From Escherichia coli (GTDB lineage: Bacteria > Pseudomonadota > Gammaproteobacteria > Enterobacterales > Enterobacteriaceae), in assembly GCF_013122565.1 (NCBI RefSeq), contig NZ_CP053258.1: a stretch of 64,000 nt of DNA, one strand, 5' to 3'. Position numbers and translations under genes: made by a program. This document shows positions 1,604 through 48,153 of this stretch, in pieces. The stretch's first letter is position 1. Every line of letters begins with the position of its first letter. A model generated the notes under the pieces. It was not told the DNA's origin, made no database searches, and saw only the letters and a list, made by a program, of their open reading frames with translations.

Positions 1604-2176
1604 TTATTGCTGCTTAACGAACAAACTGGCGAAGCTGAACAGGCTGGCGGCGCTAAATATCAGTTCAATTCCCACCAGTGTCGAAACCAGCGTTACAGAC
1701 ACCATCGGCGTTGCACCAAGGAATATCCAGGCAATGACGATATCCAGCACACCAATAACGAGCTGTAGCCAGCTGCCTTTCATTGAACGCTGACGATACC
1801 AACTCATCAGGCGAATAACCCCTGCAACACAGAACAAACCGGCAATAAATGCCGCTATGGCAAAAATGCCCAGCTCCGGTGCGCGGATGAAGAAATAGCC
1901 GATCAATAAATAGGCGACTGCGACGAGGAAACCGGATAATACCGGCCAGAAATTATGACTGCGGTTGCTGAATAATCCAACAATAAGCGCAATGCCCGAG
2001 CAGATTAATAATGCACCCACTACCGTGCTTAAAATATCGCCAGAGACGAACGGGAAACTGATACACAGCAACCCGACGATAAACAGCAGCACGGCAATAA
2101 ACTGGATTGCTCTGCGATGTTTTTTAAGCATCTCCAGATCAAACTTCAAAATTGTTGCCTTATCTATATATAACAT
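1604..2176 (-). CDS. hdeD: Acid-resistance inner membrane protein HdeD (190 aa)
   Basis: Multi-TM hydrophobic translation matching HdeD; position divergent from hdeA. Confidence 0.9.
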   Translation of the reverse strand: MLYIDKATILKFDLEMLKKHRRAIQFIAVLLFIVGLLCISFPFVSGDILSTVVGALLICSGIALIVGLFSNRSHNFWPVLSGFLVAVAYLLIGYFFIRAPELGIFAIAAFIAGLFCVAGVIRLMSWYRQRSMKGSWLQLVIGVLDIVIAWIFLGATPMVSVTLVSTLVGIELIFSAASLFSFASLFVKQQ

Positions 2177-2430
2177 AGAACCACCCTATAAAATTAAGAA
2201 GAAAATCCCCTGCTATCAATCTATGCCAAAAACGCGTCTAAGAATGCAGTCGATTTAATAAAAATTTCCTAATTACAGTATCTGATGCATCTGTAACTCA
2301 TTGTATTGAAATAAAAATATCTGATTTTGATATTTTCTATCAACATGACATATACAGAAAACCAGGTTATAACCTCAGTGTCGAAATTGATTCGTGACGG
2401 CTCTTTCACTTTATAGTTGAGGATATTACG

Positions 2431-2763
2431 ATGAAAAAAGTATTAGGCGTTATTCTTGGTGGTCTGCTTCTTCTGCCAGTTGTGAGCAATGCAGCGGATG
2501 CGCAAAAAGCAGCTGATAACAAAAAACCGGTCAACTCCTGGACCTGTGAAGATTTCCTGGCTGTGGATGAATCCTTCCAGCCAACTGCAGTTGGTTTTGC
2601 TGAAGCGCTGAACAACAAAGATAAACCAGAAGATGCGGTTTTAGATGTTCAGGGTATTGCAACCGTAACCCCAGCTATCGTTCAGGCTTGTACTCAGGAT
2701 AAACAAGCCAACTTTAAAGATAAAGTTAAAGGCGAGTGGGACAAAATTAAGAAAGATATGTAA
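2431..2763 (+). CDS. hdeA: Periplasmic acid-stress chaperone HdeA (110 aa, signal peptide)
   Basis: Translation MKKVLGVILGGLLLLPVVSNA... matches HdeA; followed by hdeB. Confidence 0.95.
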   Translation: MKKVLGVILGGLLLLPVVSNAADAQKAADNKKPVNSWTCEDFLAVDESFQPTAVGFAEALNNKDKPEDAVLDVQGIATVTPAIVQACTQDKQANFKDKVKGEWDKIKKDM

Positions 2764-2878
2764 TTCCGGGAATGCGTTACATCGTACTTCCTTGCATATT
2801 GAACAGGCCGGAATATCTTCTTAAAAAGCAGCTATTCCTCCTGTTCATATATAATCTCTATATTGAATGGGTTACAAA

Positions 2879-3205
2879 ATGAATATTTCATCTCTCCGTA
2901 AAGCGTTTATTTTTATGGGCGCTGTAGCGGCTTTGTCACTGGTAAACGCACAATCTGCGCTGGCAGCCAATGAATCCGCTAAAGATATGACTTGCCAGGA
3001 ATTTATTGATCTGAATCCAAAAGCAATGACACCGGTTGCATGGTGGATGCTGCATGAAGAAACAGTATATAAAGGTGGCGATACTGTTACTTTAAATGAA
3101 ACCGATCTCACTCAAATTCCTAAAGTGATCGAATACTGCAAGAAAAACCCGCAGAAAAATTTGTATACCTTCAAAAATCAAGCATCTAATGACTTGCCGA
3201 ATTAA
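2879..3205 (+). CDS. hdeB: Periplasmic acid-stress chaperone HdeB (108 aa from MNISSLRK)
   Basis: Translation matches HdeB; signal peptide; ORF-track start at 2867 is probably 12 nt too long. Confidence 0.9.
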   Translation: MNISSLRKAFIFMGAVAALSLVNAQSALAANESAKDMTCQEFIDLNPKAMTPVAWWMLHEETVYKGGDTVTLNETDLTQIPKVIEYCKKNPQKNLYTFKNQASNDLPN

Positions 3206-3268
3206 TGAGGTACAAGTAAAAAGGAGTAGCAAGTTGAGCCATCTTGCTGCTCCTTTTTGCATTTTTAT

Positions 3269-3916
3269 ATGACAGCAGAATTTATTATACGTCTTATACT
3301 CGCGGCAATTGCCTGTGGCGCTATTGGCATGGAAAGGCAAATGCGCGGCAAAGGAGCAGGGTTACGCACACATGTATTAATTGGCATGGGAAGCGCCCTG
3401 TTTATGATTGTTTCGAAATATGGTTTTGCTGACGTGCTGTCTTTAGATCACGTCGGACTGGACCCCAGCCGTATTGCTGCTCAGGTGGTGACGGGCGTCG
3501 GGTTTATCGGTGCAGGTAACATTCTCGTTCGTAACCAAAATATTGTAGGTCTCACGACGGCAGCGGATATCTGGGTGACCGCCGCCATTGGTATGGTTAT
3601 TGGCAGCGGTATGTACGAACTGGGTATTTATGGTTCAGTGATGACCTTGCTGGTGCTGGAAGTCTTCCATCAATTAACCTTCCGCCTGATGAACAAAAAT
3701 TACCATTTACAGCTGACATTAGTGAACGGTAATACGGTATCAATGCTCGACTGGTTTAAGCAGCAAAAAATAAAAACGGATTTAGTTTCGTTGCAGGAAA
3801 ATGAAGATCATGAAGTGGTCGCCATTGATATCCAGCTTCATGCCACAACGTCGATAGAAGATCTGTTGCGATTATTAAAAGGTATGGCAGGGGTGAAAGG
3901 CGTTTCAATTAGCTAA
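3269..3916 (+). CDS. yhiD: MgtC-family inner membrane protein YhiD (215 aa)
   Basis: Translation from MTAEFIIRL... matches YhiD; hydrophobic N-terminal MgtC-like domain. Confidence 0.85.
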   Translation: MTAEFIIRLILAAIACGAIGMERQMRGKGAGLRTHVLIGMGSALFMIVSKYGFADVLSLDHVGLDPSRIAAQVVTGVGFIGAGNILVRNQNIVGLTTAADIWVTAAIGMVIGSGMYELGIYGSVMTLLVLEVFHQLTFRLMNKNYHLQLTLVNGNTVSMLDWFKQQKIKTDLVSLQENEDHEVVAIDIQLHATTSIEDLLRLLKGMAGVKGVSIS

Positions 3917-3957
3917 TCTGTGTGGCAGCGTAGTCAGACTCACCGTAAGCCTGAAAT

Positions 3958-4488
3958 TCACACCAGATAATCAATATGCTGATGGCGTACCAGCTCATTG
4001 ATCCGCTTAAGATTGAGGATCATCATGATATTGTGTTTATGGCAGTAGAACGTTTTTAGCGATATTTTCAGTTTCTCCAGAATATCTTCCGTTGTCATTT
4101 GATTCGCAATGCAGCTCAGAACCTGATGTTGCTTACGCGAAAGTGACACAGCCGCTTCAGGCACAGAGCAGTAACTGCCATTGATGAGTGCGACAAAATC
4201 AATGATAGTGATAGTCCGCGGAACAAAGGTCACCGGTACTTTCCCCAGACAGCGTTTAATATTAAAGGGGGAGAAAATAATTACATGGACAGGTTTTAAT
4301 CGTTCAATTTGAGTGAGAAAATTAGAATGAAATACATTATTCATTAATGTATCAATAATGACGAAGGCATTCTGATGCAACATTACGTCGATCTCTTCTT
4401 CGTTCTGTATATGAACGACATTACCTTTACTCAGAATGTTTTTCATCGCGGTGAAGAACATCGTATCCCTGGTAATTATAAGAAACAT
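3958..4488 (-). CDS. dctR: LuxR-family regulator DctR/YhiF (176 aa)
   Basis: 176-aa ORF with C-terminal LuxR HTH (…LSRKQHQVLSCIANQMTTEDILEKLKISLKTFYCHKHNIMMILNLKR); synteny between yhiD and slp. Confidence 0.85.
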   Translation of the reverse strand: MFLIITRDTMFFTAMKNILSKGNVVHIQNEEEIDVMLHQNAFVIIDTLMNNVFHSNFLTQIERLKPVHVIIFSPFNIKRCLGKVPVTFVPRTITIIDFVALINGSYCSVPEAAVSLSRKQHQVLSCIANQMTTEDILEKLKISLKTFYCHKHNIMMILNLKRINELVRHQHIDYLV

Positions 4489-19989: not shown

Positions 19990-20110
19990 AGACTGATTAC
20001 AAACGCAAAATTGCCTGATGCGCTACGCTTATCAGGCCTACATAATCTCTGCAATCTATGGAATTTGCATGTTTTTGTAGGCCGGATAAGGCGTTCACGC
20101 CGCATCCGGC
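19990..20110. repeat. BIME (paired REP units) between uspB and pitA
   Basis: gcctgatgcgctacgcttatcaggcctaca ... gtaggccggataaggcgttcacgccgcatccggca. Confidence 0.8.
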
Positions 20111-44226: not shown

Positions 44227-44446
44227 ATTGTACCTTTTTGATTAACCATTGGGGTGAGGGAACCCAATACGTACGACACGTCTGTTACCTTAACATAATA
44301 ACGTGCTTACCCTTTTTTCGAGCCGCCGCATGATACTGCTTTACGTTGACAATGCAATGGTTAATTTTCACGCAATCGTTAACCTGGTTTGCTTACGGAC
44401 TCACAGGGCGTAAACTAGCGCCGTTTTTTTATGTGATGAGAAGAAA

Positions 44447-44692
44447 ATGACCGATCTCTTTTCCAGCCCTGACCACACACTCGACGCGCTTGGCCTGCGC
44501 TGCCCGGAACCCGTAATGATGGTGCGCAAAACTGTGCGCAATATGCAGCCAGGTGAAACGTTGCTGATTATTGCTGACGATCCGGCGACGACCCGCGATA
44601 TTCCTGGGTTTTGTACCTTTATGGAACACGAACTGGTTGCTAAAGAGACGGATGGACTGCCTTATCGTTATTTGATTCGTAAATCGGGGTAA
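44447..44692 (+). CDS. tusA: Sulfur carrier protein TusA (81 aa)
   Basis: Conserved CPEP active-site motif ([14 protein letters not shown]). Confidence 0.95.
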
Positions 44693-44719
44693 GGTGGATC
44701 AGGCTAGCGGACCGATCGC

Positions 44720-44890
44720 GCTCAATTTTGCGGCTTGCAACCGGTTTGTAGGATGGATAAAACGTTCAAGCTGCATCTGGCGATACGGTGCGCAATGCCT
44801 GATGCGACGCTGTCGCGTCTTATCATGCCTACGAGTTTGATGCCCTGTGTAGGCTGGATAAGGCGTTCACGCCGCATCCGGCACGCAAAC
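44720..44890. repeat. REP/BIME cluster downstream of tusA
   Basis: gcctgatgcgacgctgtcgcgtcttatcatgcctac and gtaggctggataaggcgttcacgccgcatccggca. Confidence 0.8.
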
Positions 44891-44898
44891 GTATTGGA

Positions 44899-45216
44899 AT
44901 GCAAAAAATGGATTATTTAATTCCAGTTTGTCTGGCATTGCTTGGATTGCTGGCGATCTTCACCCCCAATTGGCTGATCCCTGTTTTTATCGTCGTGGGT
45001 GGATGGCTGGGAGTACTTGTCTGGGGCTGGCTCTGGCTAATGATATTTTTACCTTTACTTAACGGTGTCGGGCTTGCTTATGCCCTGTGGTTGATGTTCA
45101 AAAGGCCATCATTAGCATCCCGCCTGGTTGCTGCATTTAGTGTTATCTCCGTCATTCTGATGTTAGCGCTATATTACGCTATCCTGACCATGCCGCCGTT
45201 CCCGCCTCAGCATTAA
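44899..45216 (+). CDS. Hypothetical small membrane protein (105 aa, Trp-rich, 2-3 predicted TM helices)
   Basis: ORF with a strongly hydrophobic translation (…WLIPVFIVVGGWLGVLVWGWLWLMIFLPLL…); not recognised as a K-12 gene at this position. Confidence 0.4.
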   Translation: MQKMDYLIPVCLALLGLLAIFTPNWLIPVFIVVGGWLGVLVWGWLWLMIFLPLLNGVGLAYALWLMFKRPSLASRLVAAFSVISVILMLALYYAILTMPPFPPQH

Positions 45217-45275
45217 GCCCTGTATACGGAAATGATGCCAGAAGTGCCGCCGGGGCACTCTGGCGGCAAAAAGGT

Positions 45276-45842
45276 TTAACTTTCCCAGGTAATATCCAGC
45301 AACTCACTCTTCTCGTCGAAAGTAAATACCAGCAACTGATCCGAGATATCTTTTGATATCCCATAATCCACAGTCATTTTTAACCTGCCTGGAGCAGGGG
45401 CGGCTATCCAGAGATGAACGCCACGTAAAGTGATTTGCTTTGCACAAGCCTCGTGCGTAGGTGGAGTTATATCTAGAGATTGCAATGTTTCAGCATCGAG
45501 TTCATCTAAATGAAACTCAATAAACTCATCAACAAACGCATTTGTTCCTTTCTTTTGCGCAAGTATGTTGCGGATAATTTCAGTACATGCAGGGAGGCTA
45601 TCCAGGAGTGGAACGATTTTCTCAATGGGGGTATTTGGCAGGACATCTTCAAAAATATTTAGCCAGACAGTTCGTTTTTCATTGTTAAGCGTAACGGGTA
45701 CGTATTCCGCGAAACCCTCTGACTTATCAACAGCGAGCCTTCCCCAGTAATTTGAATTTAACGTAATCATCCATTGATTCCATTTATATGTTATGTAATG
45801 AGATGCTGCGAAGCCCGTATTAGATAGCTTCGCAGGGCTCAC
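45276..45842 (-). CDS. Hypothetical soluble protein (188 aa if the GTG at 45842 is used; about 164 aa from the internal ATG, MITLNSNYWGRL...)
   Basis: Long ORF immediately downstream of zntA on the same strand; no recognisable motifs; the first ~20 codons of the long form overlap a 9-bp-stem hairpin. Confidence 0.4.
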   Translation of the reverse strand: MSPAKLSNTGFAASHYITYKWNQWMITLNSNYWGRLAVDKSEGFAEYVPVTLNNEKRTVWLNIFEDVLPNTPIEKIVPLLDSLPACTEIIRNILAQKKGTNAFVDEFIEFHLDELDAETLQSLDITPPTHEACAKQITLRGVHLWIAAPAPGRLKMTVDYGISKDISDQLLVFTFDEKSELLDITWES

Positions 45843-45878
45843 CGTATATCATGGTCAGGATGACAGCAATCCGAAAAA

Positions 45879-48080
45879 CTACCCCTTCCTGCGCAACAAT
45901 CTTAACGCATTCGCCGTCACCAGCACCGTCGCACCCGTATCTGCCAGCACTGCCAGCCATAGTCCGGTCATCCCTAAAAGCGTGGTGACGAGGAAGATCC
46001 CTTTCAGCCCCAGCGCAATGGTGATGTTCTGGCGGATATTGGCGTGAGTGGCGCGTGCCAGTTCAATCATTTGCACCAGGCCGCGCAGGTGGTTATGGGT
46101 TAATGCTGCGTCGGCGGTTTCCAGCGCCACGTCTGTGCCGCTACCCATTGCAATCCCAATGGCGGCAGCTTTCATCGCTGGCGCGTCGTTAATACCATCA
46201 CCGACCATCGCCAGGGGCGCATGTTGATTCAGCTTGGTCACCGCTTTGACTTTATCTTCCGGCAAGAGGCCCGCTTTAAACTCCAGCCCCAGCTCCCCGG
46301 CAATTGCGGCCGCTGCGCGTGGATTATCGCCGGTGAGGATCACTCCTTTAACCCCCAGCGCGTTCAGTTCACTGATGGCAGTTGCAGCATCGGCGCGCAG
46401 GGTATCCTGTAACGCAATGACACCAAGCACGTCATTGTTACGTACTACCAGCACTACCGTTTGCCCGGCGCTTTCCAGTTCGTTAATTAAACCAGCAAAT
46501 GCATCAGCGGGATGTTTCCCGGCAGCGCATATCAACACGCGCTCACCGTTAACCTGCGCTTCAATGCCAGACCCGACCAGCGCCCGCTGTGATTCGGCGG
46601 CGGGAATGGCGAGTGCAGCAACCTGTGCTTCTCGCACGATGGCCTGCGCCAGTGGATGCGTCGCGCCTTGCTCGACCGCCGCCGCCAGTGTCAGCAGTTC
46701 AGATTCACTAATACCCGTTGCCGGATGAATCGCGGTAACGCGCGGTTTACCGACGGTCAGCGTACCGGTTTTATCAAACGCCACCTGGGTAACATGACCC
46801 AGCTGTTCCAGCGCCGCTCCGCCTTTAATCAACGCCCCACGACGCGCTGCCGCCGCCAGCCCGGAGGTAATCGCCGCAGGCGTTGAGATAACTAACGCAC
46901 ACGGGCAGCCAATCAGCAGCAGCGTCAGCCCTTTATAAATCCACTCCTGCCAGCTGGCGGCAAACAGCAGCGGTGGCACCAGCGTCACCAGCAGAGCGAC
47001 GGCCATAATCGCGGGCGTATAGATACGGCTGAAACGGTCGATAAACCGCTCAATGGGTGCGCGACGCTCTTCGGCTTCTTCGATCAGTTTTAGAATCCGG
47101 TCAATGGCGCTGGCACCCGGTTCTGACAGCACTTCCAGCGTTACCAGACGGTCTACGCTGGTGGCACCAGCAGGGACTTTATCGCCCGTCGCGCGCTCCA
47201 CCGGAATGGATTCTCCGGTCAGGGCGCTTTCATCAAAACTGGCAAACGGTGAGAGCAGTTTACCGTCGGCAGGCAAACGTCCACCTGCGGCGACTTCAAT
47301 CATATCGCCAGGGCGCAGGCTGTTAATCGCCACCTCTTCCCGCTCACCGTTACGCAGGCGCGTGGCGGTTTCTGGTTTCAGCGCCATTAACGCGCTAACG
47401 CCCTGACGCGCGCGGCTGGCGGCCCAGCCTTCCAGTCGTTCACCAATCAAAAACAGCAGCAACACCATCGCAGCTTCAGCCGTTGCGCCAATAAACAGTG
47501 CACCAATAGCGGCTACGCTCATTAAGGTTTCAATGGCGAAGTAGCTGCCGGATTTGATCAGCCGTAATGCCTGACGAGCAATCGGGTACAGCCCAACCAG
47601 CGTGGTCGCGATAAACGCCAGTTGCCCGAACGGATGATTAAATTGCTCCAAACCCCAGCTGATTGCCATCATCACGATAAGCGTAATCAGCGGCAGATTC
47701 TCTTTCAGGCGCGATGCTTGTGGCTCGTCGGCGGCCTGCTCATCGCGCAGGGAATAGCCCGCTTTTTGCACCGCAGATTCAACTTGTGCACGGATGTCAT
47801 TGTCGGCATCAACCACCAGTTTTTCGGTGGCGAACAACACCTGTACCTGATTCACGCCTGCAAGCTGGCGCACGGCATTTTCTACCTTGCGCGCACAGGC
47901 GGCGCAGTCCATGCCGCTGACTTTCCAGCTATAGCGGGTGCCGGAGACGTTTTCAGAGAGAGTTGGCGTGCTGGAACATGCGCCGTCGCAGCAACAGTCG
48001 TTGGCGTTCTGTACCGTGGTTAGCGGTTTGAACGCAGCAAATTGAGGGGCTTTCTTGCCGTGATTGTCAGGAGTCGACAT
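45879..48080 (-). CDS. zntA: Zn(II)/Cd(II)/Pb(II)-translocating P-type ATPase ZntA (about 732 aa)
   Basis: N-terminal CCCDGAC and GMDCAAC metal-binding motifs, CPC transmembrane motif, DKTGT phosphorylation site. Confidence 0.95.
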   Translation of the reverse strand: MSTPDNHGKKAPQFAAFKPLTTVQNANDCCCDGACSSTPTLSENVSGTRYSWKVSGMDCAACARKVENAVRQLAGVNQVQVLFATEKLVVDADNDIRAQVESAVQKAGYSLRDEQAADEPQASRLKENLPLITLIVMMAISWGLEQFNHPFGQLAFIATTLVGLYPIARQALRLIKSGSYFAIETLMSVAAIGALFIGATAEAAMVLLLFLIGERLEGWAASRARQGVSALMALKPETATRLRNGEREEVAINSLRPGDMIEVAAGGRLPADGKLLSPFASFDESALTGESIPVERATGDKVPAGATSVDRLVTLEVLSEPGASAIDRILKLIEEAEERRAPIERFIDRFSRIYTPAIMAVALLVTLVPPLLFAASWQEWIYKGLTLLLIGCPCALVISTPAAITSGLAAAARRGALIKGGAALEQLGHVTQVAFDKTGTLTVGKPRVTAIHPATGISESELLTLAAAVEQGATHPLAQAIVREAQVAALAIPAAESQRALVGSGIEAQVNGERVLICAAGKHPADAFAGLINELESAGQTVVLVVRNNDVLGVIALQDTLRADAATAISELNALGVKGVILTGDNPRAAAAIAGELGLEFKAGLLPEDKVKAVTKLNQHAPLAMVGDGINDAPAMKAAAIGIAMGSGTDVALETADAALTHNHLRGLVQMIELARATHANIRQNITIALGLKGIFLVTTLLGMTGLWLAVLADTGATVLVTANALRLLRRKG

Positions 48081-48122
48081 GGCATCCTCCGGTTAAGTTT
48101 TTTCTCATTAACCGAAGGATAC

Positions 48123-48144
48123 ACTCTGGAGTCGACTCCAGAGT
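48123..48144. promoter_or_regulatory. ZntR (MerR-family) operator within the zntA promoter
   Basis: Perfect 22-bp palindrome ACTCTGGAGTCGACTCCAGAGT between a TTGACT -35 and a TATCCT-like -10 on the minus strand, giving the long spacer typical of MerR-type promoters. Confidence 0.7.
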
Positions 48145-48153
48145 CAAGTTTTA

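Follow-up and report, generated by a model that had tools for sequence, protein, structure and literature searches.

In the 64,000-nt stretch of Escherichia coli DNA analysed here (contig NZ_CP053258.1; hereafter the window), the gap between tusA and zntA contains two convergent open reading frames, ORF1 on the plus strand and ORF2 on the minus strand. K-12 has no gene at this junction, as the preliminary description had suggested, and its tusA-zntA spacer is only 101 nt long. This raises the question of whether the two frames are genes, how they came to occupy the junction and what their products could do. While the preliminary description presented the pair as unannotated, the exact ORF1 and ORF2 proteins are already present in GenBank/RefSeq. 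The locus is laid out as follows:

44447..44692, plus strand: tusA, sulfur carrier (ORF list and RefSeq annotation of homologous loci)
44747..44886, no strand: BIME-like cluster separating tusA from ORF1, its three REP units alternating in orientation (repeats, Rfam, REP consensus)
44908..45216, plus strand: ORF1, small membrane protein of 102 aa (conserved start, annotation, dN/dS, homologs)
45236..45265, no strand: GC-rich hairpin between the convergent ORF1 and ORF2 stop codons (RNA fold)
45276..45770, minus strand: ORF2, acidic soluble alpha/beta protein of 164 aa (conserved start, annotation, dN/dS, AF2)
45771..45878, minus strand: conserved zntA-ORF2 intergenic leader (sequence conservation and RNAalifold)
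45879..48080, minus strand: zntA, Zn/Cd/Pb P-type ATPase (ORF list and RefSeq annotation of homologous loci)
48116..48147, minus strand: zntA promoter with the ZntR-type palindrome TTGACT-ctggagtcgactccagagtg-TATCCT (sequence reading)

Two convergent frames and their products

ORF1, whose upstream same-strand neighbour is tusA, encodes a protein identical to WP_171460688.1 / QJU27952.1, annotated as 'hypothetical protein'. It had been portrayed as a very hydrophobic, Trp-rich protein of 105 aa. The composition stands, with a GRAVY of 1.45 (102-aa form), 6 Trp (5.7%), a basic pI of 9.0 and about four hydrophobic segments. The length does not: the long form (44899-45216, plus strand) begins at an upstream in-frame ATG that is specific to the window, and we rejected this start because a 1-nt indel removes the ATG from the reading frame in other alleles; the start at 44908 is the conserved one. 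In one strain, a duplication of 9 nt within ORF1 preserves the frame, and no Rfam sRNA overlaps the gene.

ORF2, whose upstream same-strand neighbour is zntA, encodes a protein identical to WP_250880413.1 / QJU26529.1, with the RefSeq name 'DUF2004 domain-containing protein'. The internal ATG at 45770 (MITLNS...), previously favoured over an upstream GTG, proved to be the conserved start, and in all lineages the RefSeq protein is 164-165 aa long. The GTG-extended form of 188 aa (45276-45842, minus strand, as for zntA) was rejected on comparative grounds; the 24 codons upstream of the ATG are found in no homolog, some GenBank calls excepted. The protein has a pI of 4.55, and the GC content of its gene is 42% versus 50% for the window. 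An AF2 model built from 85 sequences reached a pLDDT of 96.3 and a pTM of 0.90, while a model from 5 sequences only was unusable (pLDDT 53). The predicted fold matched no PDB or viral structure, and PDB sequence searches with three profiles returned nothing relevant.

The two stop codons are separated by the hairpin at 45236..45265 (-26.1 kcal/mol, z = -2.4 on the plus strand). It was not picked up by the terminator scan; it could serve as a 3' end for transcripts from both sides, though it has no U-tract.

From comparison of the sequences we conclude that both frames are real accessory genes, since dN/dS is 0.13-0.44 for ORF1 and 0.16-0.28 for ORF2, dS resembles that of the flanks and the ORF2 model is confident. 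Indeed, nonsynonymous changes are in deficit in both (Fisher p 3e-9 to 2e-2), and the frames remain unbroken in lineages whose dS reaches 0.5.

Inheritance and loss at the junction

The comparison across E. coli that the preliminary description had called for shows that the pair is polymorphic, K-12 and most E. coli having neither gene. Among 5426 complete E. coli genomes, all matched by a locus-spanning query that includes zntA, ORF1 alone is present in 317 and ORF2 alone in one, and none has both. ORF2 alone is found in strain 6EVA and in one 'E. fergusonii' genome. E. albertii and Escherichia sp. carry the pair at this junction, too. Both ORFs have dS values (0.2-0.5) that match the ones for tusA and zntA when the same genomes are compared, which argues for vertical inheritance of the locus.

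A GTDB scan with a closer alignment yielded 9 loci. On one metagenomic contig (L015), zntA (77% identical as protein) is followed after 49 nt by an ORF2 homolog (55% identity) and then by tusA. A second contig (L014) carries an ORF1 homolog (36% identity, E = 5e-14) 35 nt 3' of tusA and, convergent with it, an ORF2 homolog (58% identity), the 3' ends overlapping by 4 nt. There, the gene upstream of the ORF2 homolog has no ZntA-like end, and the gap of 140 nt includes a good Shine-Dalgarno sequence. As these homologs adjoin tusA, the two contigs suggest that the locus may be older than the genus Escherichia.

Between tusA and ORF1, a REP cluster had been proposed, and three units were found at 44747-44886. 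A direct repeat occupies 44747-44781 and 44848-44882, with an inverted unit in between; the REP-derived Rfam family naRNA4 matches 44751-44829 and 44852-44886, below its gathering score. At 44849-44882 the sequence fits the canonical REP with 1 mismatch, and no such match is expected by chance. A further REP-type Rfam match, on the minus strand and reaching 44927 at the 5' end of ORF1, is weak (E = 0.39). The pair is not bracketed by REP elements, as had been stated: they lie on the tusA side only, and repeat, Rfam and consensus searches found none between ORF1 and zntA. They are also absent from the ORF2-only allele and from contig L014.

Deletion end-points are visible in the junction alignment, and one end-point of the K-12 deletion falls at the first REP. 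We propose that both genes were already at the junction in the Escherichia ancestor and were later deleted from most E. coli. In K-12, a single deletion of about 1.13 kb would have taken both genes, reaching from the first REP as far as the stop codon of zntA, and other lineages would have lost ORF2 only or ORF1 only. The idea of an orphan immunity-like or membrane-peptide cassette found no support, given the vertical inheritance and the lack of an adjacent toxin, of plasmid or phage copies and of PADLOC or PHROGs matches. A mobile cassette was rejected, as neither bracketing repeats nor copies on plasmids or phages were found and dS equals that of the flanks; the plasmid and phage searches gave no Escherichia match, only Listeria chromosomal-type records being matched. 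The junction is an ordinary gene-content polymorphism shaped by differential loss, not a mobile cassette.

The ORF2 family and a possible link to zntA

Searches of Pfam, NCBIfam, PADLOC and PHROGs with ORF1 and ORF2 gave only chance-level matches. Among 1.84 billion representatives, relatives of ORF2 form 129 clusters at E<=1e-3. The family is small, uniformly acidic (median pI 4.28) and scattered over Proteobacteria, Actinobacteria, Firmicutes and Bacteroidota. Two residues, D135 and E163, never vary, at least 90% of members keep G10, D144 and S164, and the C-terminus is a conserved Glu-Ser end; some members carry LRR or TPR repeat fusions.

'DUF2004 domain-containing protein' is a database name only: PF09406 did not match ORF2 in Pfam, and no DUF2004-type model in Pfam-A or NCBIfam did so. 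The RefSeq 'DUF2004' relatives from E. fergusonii, E. albertii, Chryseobacterium and Listeria monocytogenes (WP_014600520.1) are nonetheless full-length homologs of ORF2. The Listeria homolog has lntA-side genes on one flank and a PBP gene on the other, away from zntA. Literature searches on DUF2004, DUF2262, DUF6985, the protein accessions and the locus context found nothing useful; lmo0440 appears only as a flank of an 'inert' integration site.

The sequences point to a marginal relation between the ORF2 family and Pfam DUF2262/DUF6985. At E<=0.01, DUF2262 (PF10020) matches 12/85 family members. The Chryseobacterium clade scores 27.6-29.5 bits on this model, under the gathering cut-off of 29.8, and weakly on DUF6985; hhalign aligns the Escherichia clade to it over 152 columns (probability 97.7%, E = 1.5e-12). 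ORF2 itself matches neither model even at E<=1 and falls outside the DUF2262 membership cut-off, while its homology to model-matching sequences is that of a superfamily-level relation. At most, ORF2 may be seen as a self-contained cytoplasmic binding or catalytic protein without a fixed genomic partner.

Upstream of ORF2, the ZntR-type promoter is intact and is the sole recognisable promoter on that strand; we take its palindrome to be the ZntR operator of K-12 PzntA. The zntA-ORF2 gap is 108 nt long, and the terminator scan detected no intrinsic-terminator-like site in it. A distal gene co-transcribed with zntA had been suggested: for ORF2 the position (strand, gap and conserved adjacency) favours it, co-transcription itself being presumed from this layout. 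A promoter scan of 44300-46100 returned none, though tusA must have one there; since the scan missed this expected promoter, it leaves room for internal ones. On contig L014, the different upstream gene, the 140-nt gap and the good Shine-Dalgarno sequence indicate that ORF2 can be expressed on its own.

The leader differs between the window and E. albertii at 10/108 positions, while 34-39% of synonymous sites differ, a conservation 3.6-4x above that of synonymous sites. The hairpin that had been noticed near the GTG was recovered at 45806-45835, with a 10-bp stem, in a region that folds with z = -3.2. A long-range helix (45846-45861 with 45769-45789) encloses this inner hairpin and pairs with the A and U of the ORF2 AUG. 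The RNAalifold consensus, from an alignment of 3-4 independent lineages, contains 1 compensatory and 3 one-sided compatible changes; the outer helix is invariant, so that covariation cannot support it. No Rfam family corresponds to the leader.

Our preferred reading, to which we give a probability of roughly 0.6, is that ORF1 and ORF2 are ancestral, independently maintained tail genes of convergent units, lost by deletion. The two transcription units would run from tusA to ORF1 and from zntA to ORF2. ORF1 would be a small inner-membrane protein with about four transmembrane segments, encoded 3' of tusA across the REP/BIME cluster, and ORF2 an acidic 164-aa cytoplasmic alpha/beta protein encoded behind zntA and a structured 108-nt leader. 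To judge from the layout, ORF2 would be made mainly through read-through from the ZntR-controlled zntA promoter; the outer helix would occlude the start codon, and the leader would thus limit ORF2 translation or couple it.

Competing readings and known systems

It is extremely improbable that ORF1 and ORF2 are open merely by chance, or are pseudogenes undergoing decay, within a spacer rich in REP elements. Frameshifted or shortened forms of ORF1 do occur in some lineages (P0033-P0035, P0038), constraint on the ORFs is weaker than on the flanking genes and both are missing from most E. coli, but the nonsynonymous deficit is significant, the frames persist at the divergence given above, and cross-phylum homologs and a confident fold prediction exist; a spurious-ORF reading was rejected on dN/dS and cross-phylum homology. 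As real genes, the two could form one module, a membrane component and a soluble partner that need each other, and the tail-to-tail arrangement is kept both in Escherichia species and on L014, at 58%/36% identity and with the 4-nt overlap. We consider this very unlikely. Convergent orientation means separate transcripts, ORF1 stands alone with intact frames in the 317 E. coli genomes, ORF2 stands alone in 6EVA, the 'E. fergusonii' genome and L015, and no ORF1-like gene lies beside the distant ORF2 relatives. Each ORF being retained alone under purifying selection in different lineages, these sequences indicate that the two are not an obligate pair.

Two further readings concern ORF2. It could be an orphan immunity protein or inhibitor acting against competitors' interbacterial toxin and kept without that toxin, with ORF1 unrelated or accessory. 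The family is indeed small, cytoplasmic and strongly acidic throughout, rare and scattered over four phyla, and includes the LRR/TPR fusions; ORF2 has a low GC content relative to the window, the Chryseobacterium copy sits within a long series of small genes, all on one strand and lacking Pfam matches (the only array-like context), and neighbours include one DUF4261 (Bacillota MAG) and one NADAR (Clostridia MAG). Yet no toxin, Rhs, CdiA, LXG or secretion gene adjoins ORF2 in the window or in about 11 distant-homolog contexts, PADLOC matched neither ORF1 nor ORF2 and Pfam immunity (Imm) families matched 0/85 members at E<=0.01. Inheritance at a fixed core position in Escherichia, tusA-adjoining homologs that suggest a gene older than the genus, and absence from true plasmids and phages also speak against immunity, as do the invariant acidic residues and fixed C-terminus across phyla, unlike fast-evolving immunity interfaces. 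We regard this reading as unlikely. Quite unlikely, too, is a role as an accessory that assists ZntA with Zn/Cd/Pb, such as buffering or chaperoning the metal in the cytoplasm through conserved Asp, Glu and His. This reading draws on the position directly 3' of zntA, and co-oriented with it, in Escherichia and L015, on the ZntR-type promoter, and on H87 (76%), E90 (85%), D135 (100%), D144 (92%) and E163 (100%) as plausible hard-metal ligands. However, non-enteric family members do not adjoin metal transporters, L014 has a different gene upstream, only 1/5426 complete E. coli genomes has ORF2, Pfam and NCBIfam searches found no metal-binding motif or family in it, and its Cys residues are not kept outside the close clade. 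We give little credence to the fuller version, in which ORF2 would be a ZntR-regulon protein whose leader is opened by ribosomes ending zntA, and a putative Zn/Cd/Pb partner of the pump.

Distant ORF2 family members have no metal-transport association, which speaks against a zntA link. As most E. coli are without ORF2, any role alongside ZntA would be dispensable. A general link to exporters was rejected: one Rhodococcus homolog lies behind an MFS pump, but a second Rhodococcus locus has no pump.

With independently maintained, ancestral tail genes as the preferred reading, the tusA-zntA locus is a tidy case in which genes at a core-genome junction have been lost differentially; it also corrects the view of this interval as unannotated or as a mobile cassette. 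Natural presence/absence backgrounds exist in E. albertii, in E. fergusonii and in a small number of E. coli strains. The ORF2 family is of note for being cross-phylum, with invariant acidic residues, a fixed C-terminus and a confident fold that has no PDB match. The locus would matter more if ORF2 were tied to ZntA or had a new activity; if the ZntR-regulon and metal-partner reading were true, a DUF2262-like family with no solved or viral counterpart to its predicted fold would gain its first function.

Among known systems, ORF2 is similar in size (about 160-170 aa) to the uncharacterised bacterial families DUF2262 (PF10020) and DUF6985 (PF22481); since both are without known function, the relationship is uninformative on its activity. 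ORF1, with 102 aa and about four segments, departs from type I toxins, which have fewer than about 60 aa, a single TM helix and an antisense RNA. The zntA-ORF2 arrangement has the layout of an operon (same strand, short gap, no terminator, conserved adjacency), with L014 as the exception. The cluster 3' of tusA consists of copies of the palindromic REP consensus of about 35 nt in alternating orientation, and its three units resemble the REP/BIME elements that E. coli transcription units have within them or at their ends; here they are one-sided and do not bracket the gene pair. Finally, like polymorphic-toxin immunity proteins, ORF2 is small, acidic, cytoplasmic and patchily distributed, with occasional LRR/TPR fusions among its relatives. 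It differs from them in having neither a toxin neighbour nor an immunity array, in matching no described immunity or defence family (PADLOC, Imm), and in being inherited vertically at a fixed chromosomal site.

Two convergent genes between tusA and zntA

In the window, 1186 nt separate tusA from zntA and hold two convergent ORFs: ORF1, which follows tusA and encodes a small hydrophobic Trp-rich membrane protein, and ORF2, which follows zntA and encodes an acidic soluble protein.

Features of the tusA-zntA interval
44447-44692, plus strand: tusA, flank of the interval
44747-44886: three REP units in alternating orientation (direct repeat, Rfam and canonical REP matches)
44899-45216, plus strand: hydrophobic ORF (ORF1)
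45236-45265: GC-rich hairpin between the stop codons of ORF1 and ORF2
45276-45842, minus strand: convergent ORF (ORF2, long form)
45771-45878, minus strand: zntA-ORF2 intergenic leader, 108 nt
45806-45835: 10-bp hairpin
45879-48080, minus strand: zntA, flank of the interval

The coordinates, ORFs, REP cluster and hairpin of the preliminary description were each recovered, and its observation is accurate on all but two points, the bracketing by REPs and whether the ORFs are annotated. The REP cluster comprises a direct repeat (copies at 44747-44781 and 44848-44882), REP-type Rfam naRNA4 matches, all under the gathering score, and, at 44849-44882, a canonical REP match with a single mismatch (0 expected by chance). 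On the zntA side, Rfam, repeat and REP-consensus searches found no REP, and thus the pair is not bracketed by such elements. Away from this locus, positions 20077-20110 match the query consensus of the canonical REP perfectly, with no mismatch. As to annotation, both exact proteins are already public, from an E. coli database record: ORF2 as WP_250880413.1 (164 aa) and QJU26529.1 (188 aa), named 'DUF2004 domain-containing protein', and ORF1 as WP_171460688.1 and QJU27952.1, named 'hypothetical protein'. The two genes are therefore missing from K-12 rather than unannotated. Indeed, the zntA-tusA spacer of K-12 MG1655 is just 101 nt long and holds no gene.

All RefSeq calls and all homologs of ORF2 start with M(M)ITLNS..., which places its conserved start at the ATG at 45770 (164 aa), the internal ATG already favoured; the GTG-extended 188-aa form is found only among some GenBank calls. 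ORF1 has an in-frame ATG at 44899 in the window alone, since a 1-nt indel puts it out of frame in the other alleles; its conserved start is 44908 (102 aa).

Altogether, ORF1 and ORF2 are genuine protein-coding genes and are moderately constrained. Pairwise Nei-Gojobori comparisons of alleles from the window, E. albertii, Escherichia sp. and E. coli gave dN/dS values of 0.16-0.28 for ORF2, 0.13-0.44 for ORF1 and 0.00-0.13 for tusA and zntA, with a significant nonsynonymous deficit (Fisher p 3e-9 to 2e-2). Both frames stay open across lineages at dS up to 0.5. One strain, E. coli ESDR8 (L028, 403-720), has an extra in-frame 9-nt duplication within the N-terminal repeat segment of ORF1. ORF1 decays in places, since some lineages carry frameshifted or truncated forms. 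Finally, the AlphaFold2 model of ORF2 (85-sequence alignment) reached a pLDDT of 96.3 and a pTM of 0.90.

History of the junction

Compared for presence or absence across 5426 complete E. coli genomes, the junction proved polymorphic: ORF1 stands alone in 317 (88-94% nucleotide identity, e.g. strain 042), ORF2 alone in 1 (strain 6EVA), and none carries both. The full order, tusA-REP-ORF1 with convergent ORF2-zntA, is found in E. albertii and in Escherichia sp. and 'E. coli' drafts. ORF2 alone also occurs in one 'E. fergusonii' genome (L007, CP031282.1); its dS to the window is just 0.12, low for another species, and zntA is split there into ORFs of 468 and 218 aa (1764-3964) by a frameshift or a sequencing error.

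In the nucleotide alignment of the junction alleles, the missing stretch reaches the zntA stop codon both in the K-12 allele, where it begins at the first REP, and in the ORF1-only allele, where it begins just past ORF1; in the ORF2-only allele, REP and ORF1 are replaced by another short spacer. Because the deletion end-point sits in the final zntA codons, the last residues of ZntA vary among alleles: LLRRKG* in the window (45879-45890), LLRRR* in K-12 (L025) and LRRK* in ORF1-only strains (L002). The K-12 spacer (L025, 4651-4751) contains a GC-rich imperfect palindrome, ccctcaccctaaccctctccccagaggggcgagggg, which we take to resemble a 'Box C'-type repeat; E. albertii has only part of it, and the window lacks it.

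Between the window and E. albertii, the two ORFs have dS values of 0.45 and 0.34, and the flanks 0.38 and 0.56. Within a genome pair, dS of the ORFs equals that of the adjacent core genes, which indicates that the ORFs were inherited vertically together with them. With dS in step with the flanks and no ORF2-family match on Escherichia plasmids or phages, the earlier reading of the pair as a cassette is not plausible. Even so, ORF2 is poorer in GC (42%) than the adjacent zntA (58%) or the window as a whole (50%).

Both genes look older than the genus Escherichia, since homologs are found on two metagenomic contigs. On L015, zntA (product 77% identical to the window ZntA) is followed after 49 nt by an ORF2 homolog (55% identity), and then come a REP-like sequence and tusA. 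On L014, the ORF2 homolog (58% identity) overlaps at its 3′ end with an ORF1 homolog of 83 aa that runs convergently (36% identity, E = 5e-14) and lies 35 nt after tusA, in the orientation of tusA. The layout reads as two convergent units, tusA→ORF1 and zntA→ORF2. The gene upstream of ORF2 on L014 has no ZntA-like end, and ORF2 has there its own 140-nt upstream region and a good Shine-Dalgarno sequence; its linkage to zntA is thus not universal.

The zntA-ORF2 leader

The leader differs between the window and E. albertii at 10 of its 108 positions, against 34-39% of synonymous sites in ORF2 and zntA, and is thus 3.6-4x more conserved than these. RNAalifold predicts an inner hairpin and an invariant outer helix that encloses it. 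In the hairpin, one C-G pair is replaced by U-A (a compensatory change), three changes are compatible and one-sided, and one cell is broken. In the helix, the sequence just past the zntA stop pairs with AUGG..UCA..GGAU, a stretch that takes in the A and U of the ORF2 AUG. The support for this structure is suggestive only, because the outer helix never varies and just 3-4 independent lineages are represented. The leader matched no Rfam family, and a scan found no terminator-like site in the gap. Upstream of zntA, the palindrome-bearing promoter (48116-48147), presumably of the ZntR type given its likeness to the K-12 promoter, is intact. We infer from this arrangement that transcripts reading through from zntA would express ORF2, with the leader perhaps limiting or coupling its translation. 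The earlier interpretation is right in part: that ORF2 is a distal gene of zntA is plausible, with L014 as an exception, and a cassette is not.

Two protein families and their possible roles

ORF1 (102 aa, basic, pI 9.0, GRAVY 1.45) has about four hydrophobic segments, 6 Trp and one charged loop only, KRPSLASR, from which the positive-inside rule suggests that its conserved C-terminal PPFPxQH motif faces the periplasm. Residues 1-20 look like residues 21-40 (xYLIPV / xWLIPV; 44908-45030), and the L014 homolog (755-1006) lacks the first of these ~20-residue copies. It is the sole homolog found besides named relatives that are all Escherichia (single word-index search). Pfam, NCBIfam, PADLOC and PHROG gave no family match.

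Close relatives of ORF2 are confined to Escherichia and one metagenomic sequence. Among 1.84 billion representatives, searched exhaustively with a profile, just 129 clusters reached E<=1e-3, mostly of 160-170 aa and 20-35% identity, with named hosts including Chryseobacterium, Rhodococcus, Listeria, Isobaculum and MAGs of Clostridia, Bacillota and Accumulibacter. The family is uniformly acidic (median pI 4.28; ORF2 4.55), with invariant D135 and E163, G10, D144 and S164 conserved at >=90%, E90 at 85% and H87 at 76%, and a C-terminal end that is almost always Glu-Ser. ORF2 matched no Pfam or NCBIfam model at a significant E-value, nor PADLOC or PHROG, and a literature search found nothing on the family. 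DUF2262 is matched by 12 of 85 relatives; a Chryseobacterium clade, which aligns with the Escherichia clade at an hhalign probability of 97.7%, falls just under the DUF2262 cut-off and scores weakly on DUF6985. The predicted fold, a four-strand N-terminal meander, six helices and a four-strand C-terminal meander, is modelled confidently and has no significant counterpart in the PDB (Foldseek best E = 0.05, TM < 0.3; no match in sequence searches) or among viral BFVD structures (none at E<=0.001).

The neighbourhoods of distant members vary by locus. In Rhodococcus, the relative follows an MFS pump at one locus and not at another; in Isobaculum, it lies between adhE and rtcB; in Chryseobacterium, inside a run of small unknown genes; in two MAGs, it adjoins a DUF4261 protein or a NADAR protein; on three further contigs, it stands beside unrelated genes. 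In L. monocytogenes (L034, NZ_LR134402.1, 5920-6423), the homolog, lmo0440 by position, has lntA-side genes on one side and a PBP gene on the other, with inlAB nearby; 'plasmid' or 'phage' records with this homolog are chromosome-sized or chromosomal fragments. On the metagenomic contig L029 (3360-5498), the relative sits within a fatty-acid beta-oxidation cluster, near a 23S_rRNA_IVP-family gene, which suggests solitary small genes intercalated into operons.

These contexts bear on what ORF2 might be. Its small size, acidity, patchy distribution and low GC, and the fusion of a few family members to LRR or TPR repeats, are generic traits that would fit an orphan immunity protein; this explanation fails on its testable defining features, as no toxin or secretion gene was found at any distant locus inspected and ORF2 matches no known immunity family. 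A metal-handling protein beside ZntA is an attractive minority possibility. It is favoured by the synteny with zntA among enterics and by conserved carboxylate and His residues; the differing contexts elsewhere and the dispensability of the gene in E. coli count against it. That ORF1 and ORF2 form an obligate module is contradicted by the persistence of each gene alone under purifying selection. The best-supported explanation is that they are independent accessory genes, each the tail of one of two convergent units, which were present in the ancestor of Escherichia and have been lost differentially by deletion in E. coli. The finding is an ordinary accessory-gene polymorphism of two uncharacterised families.
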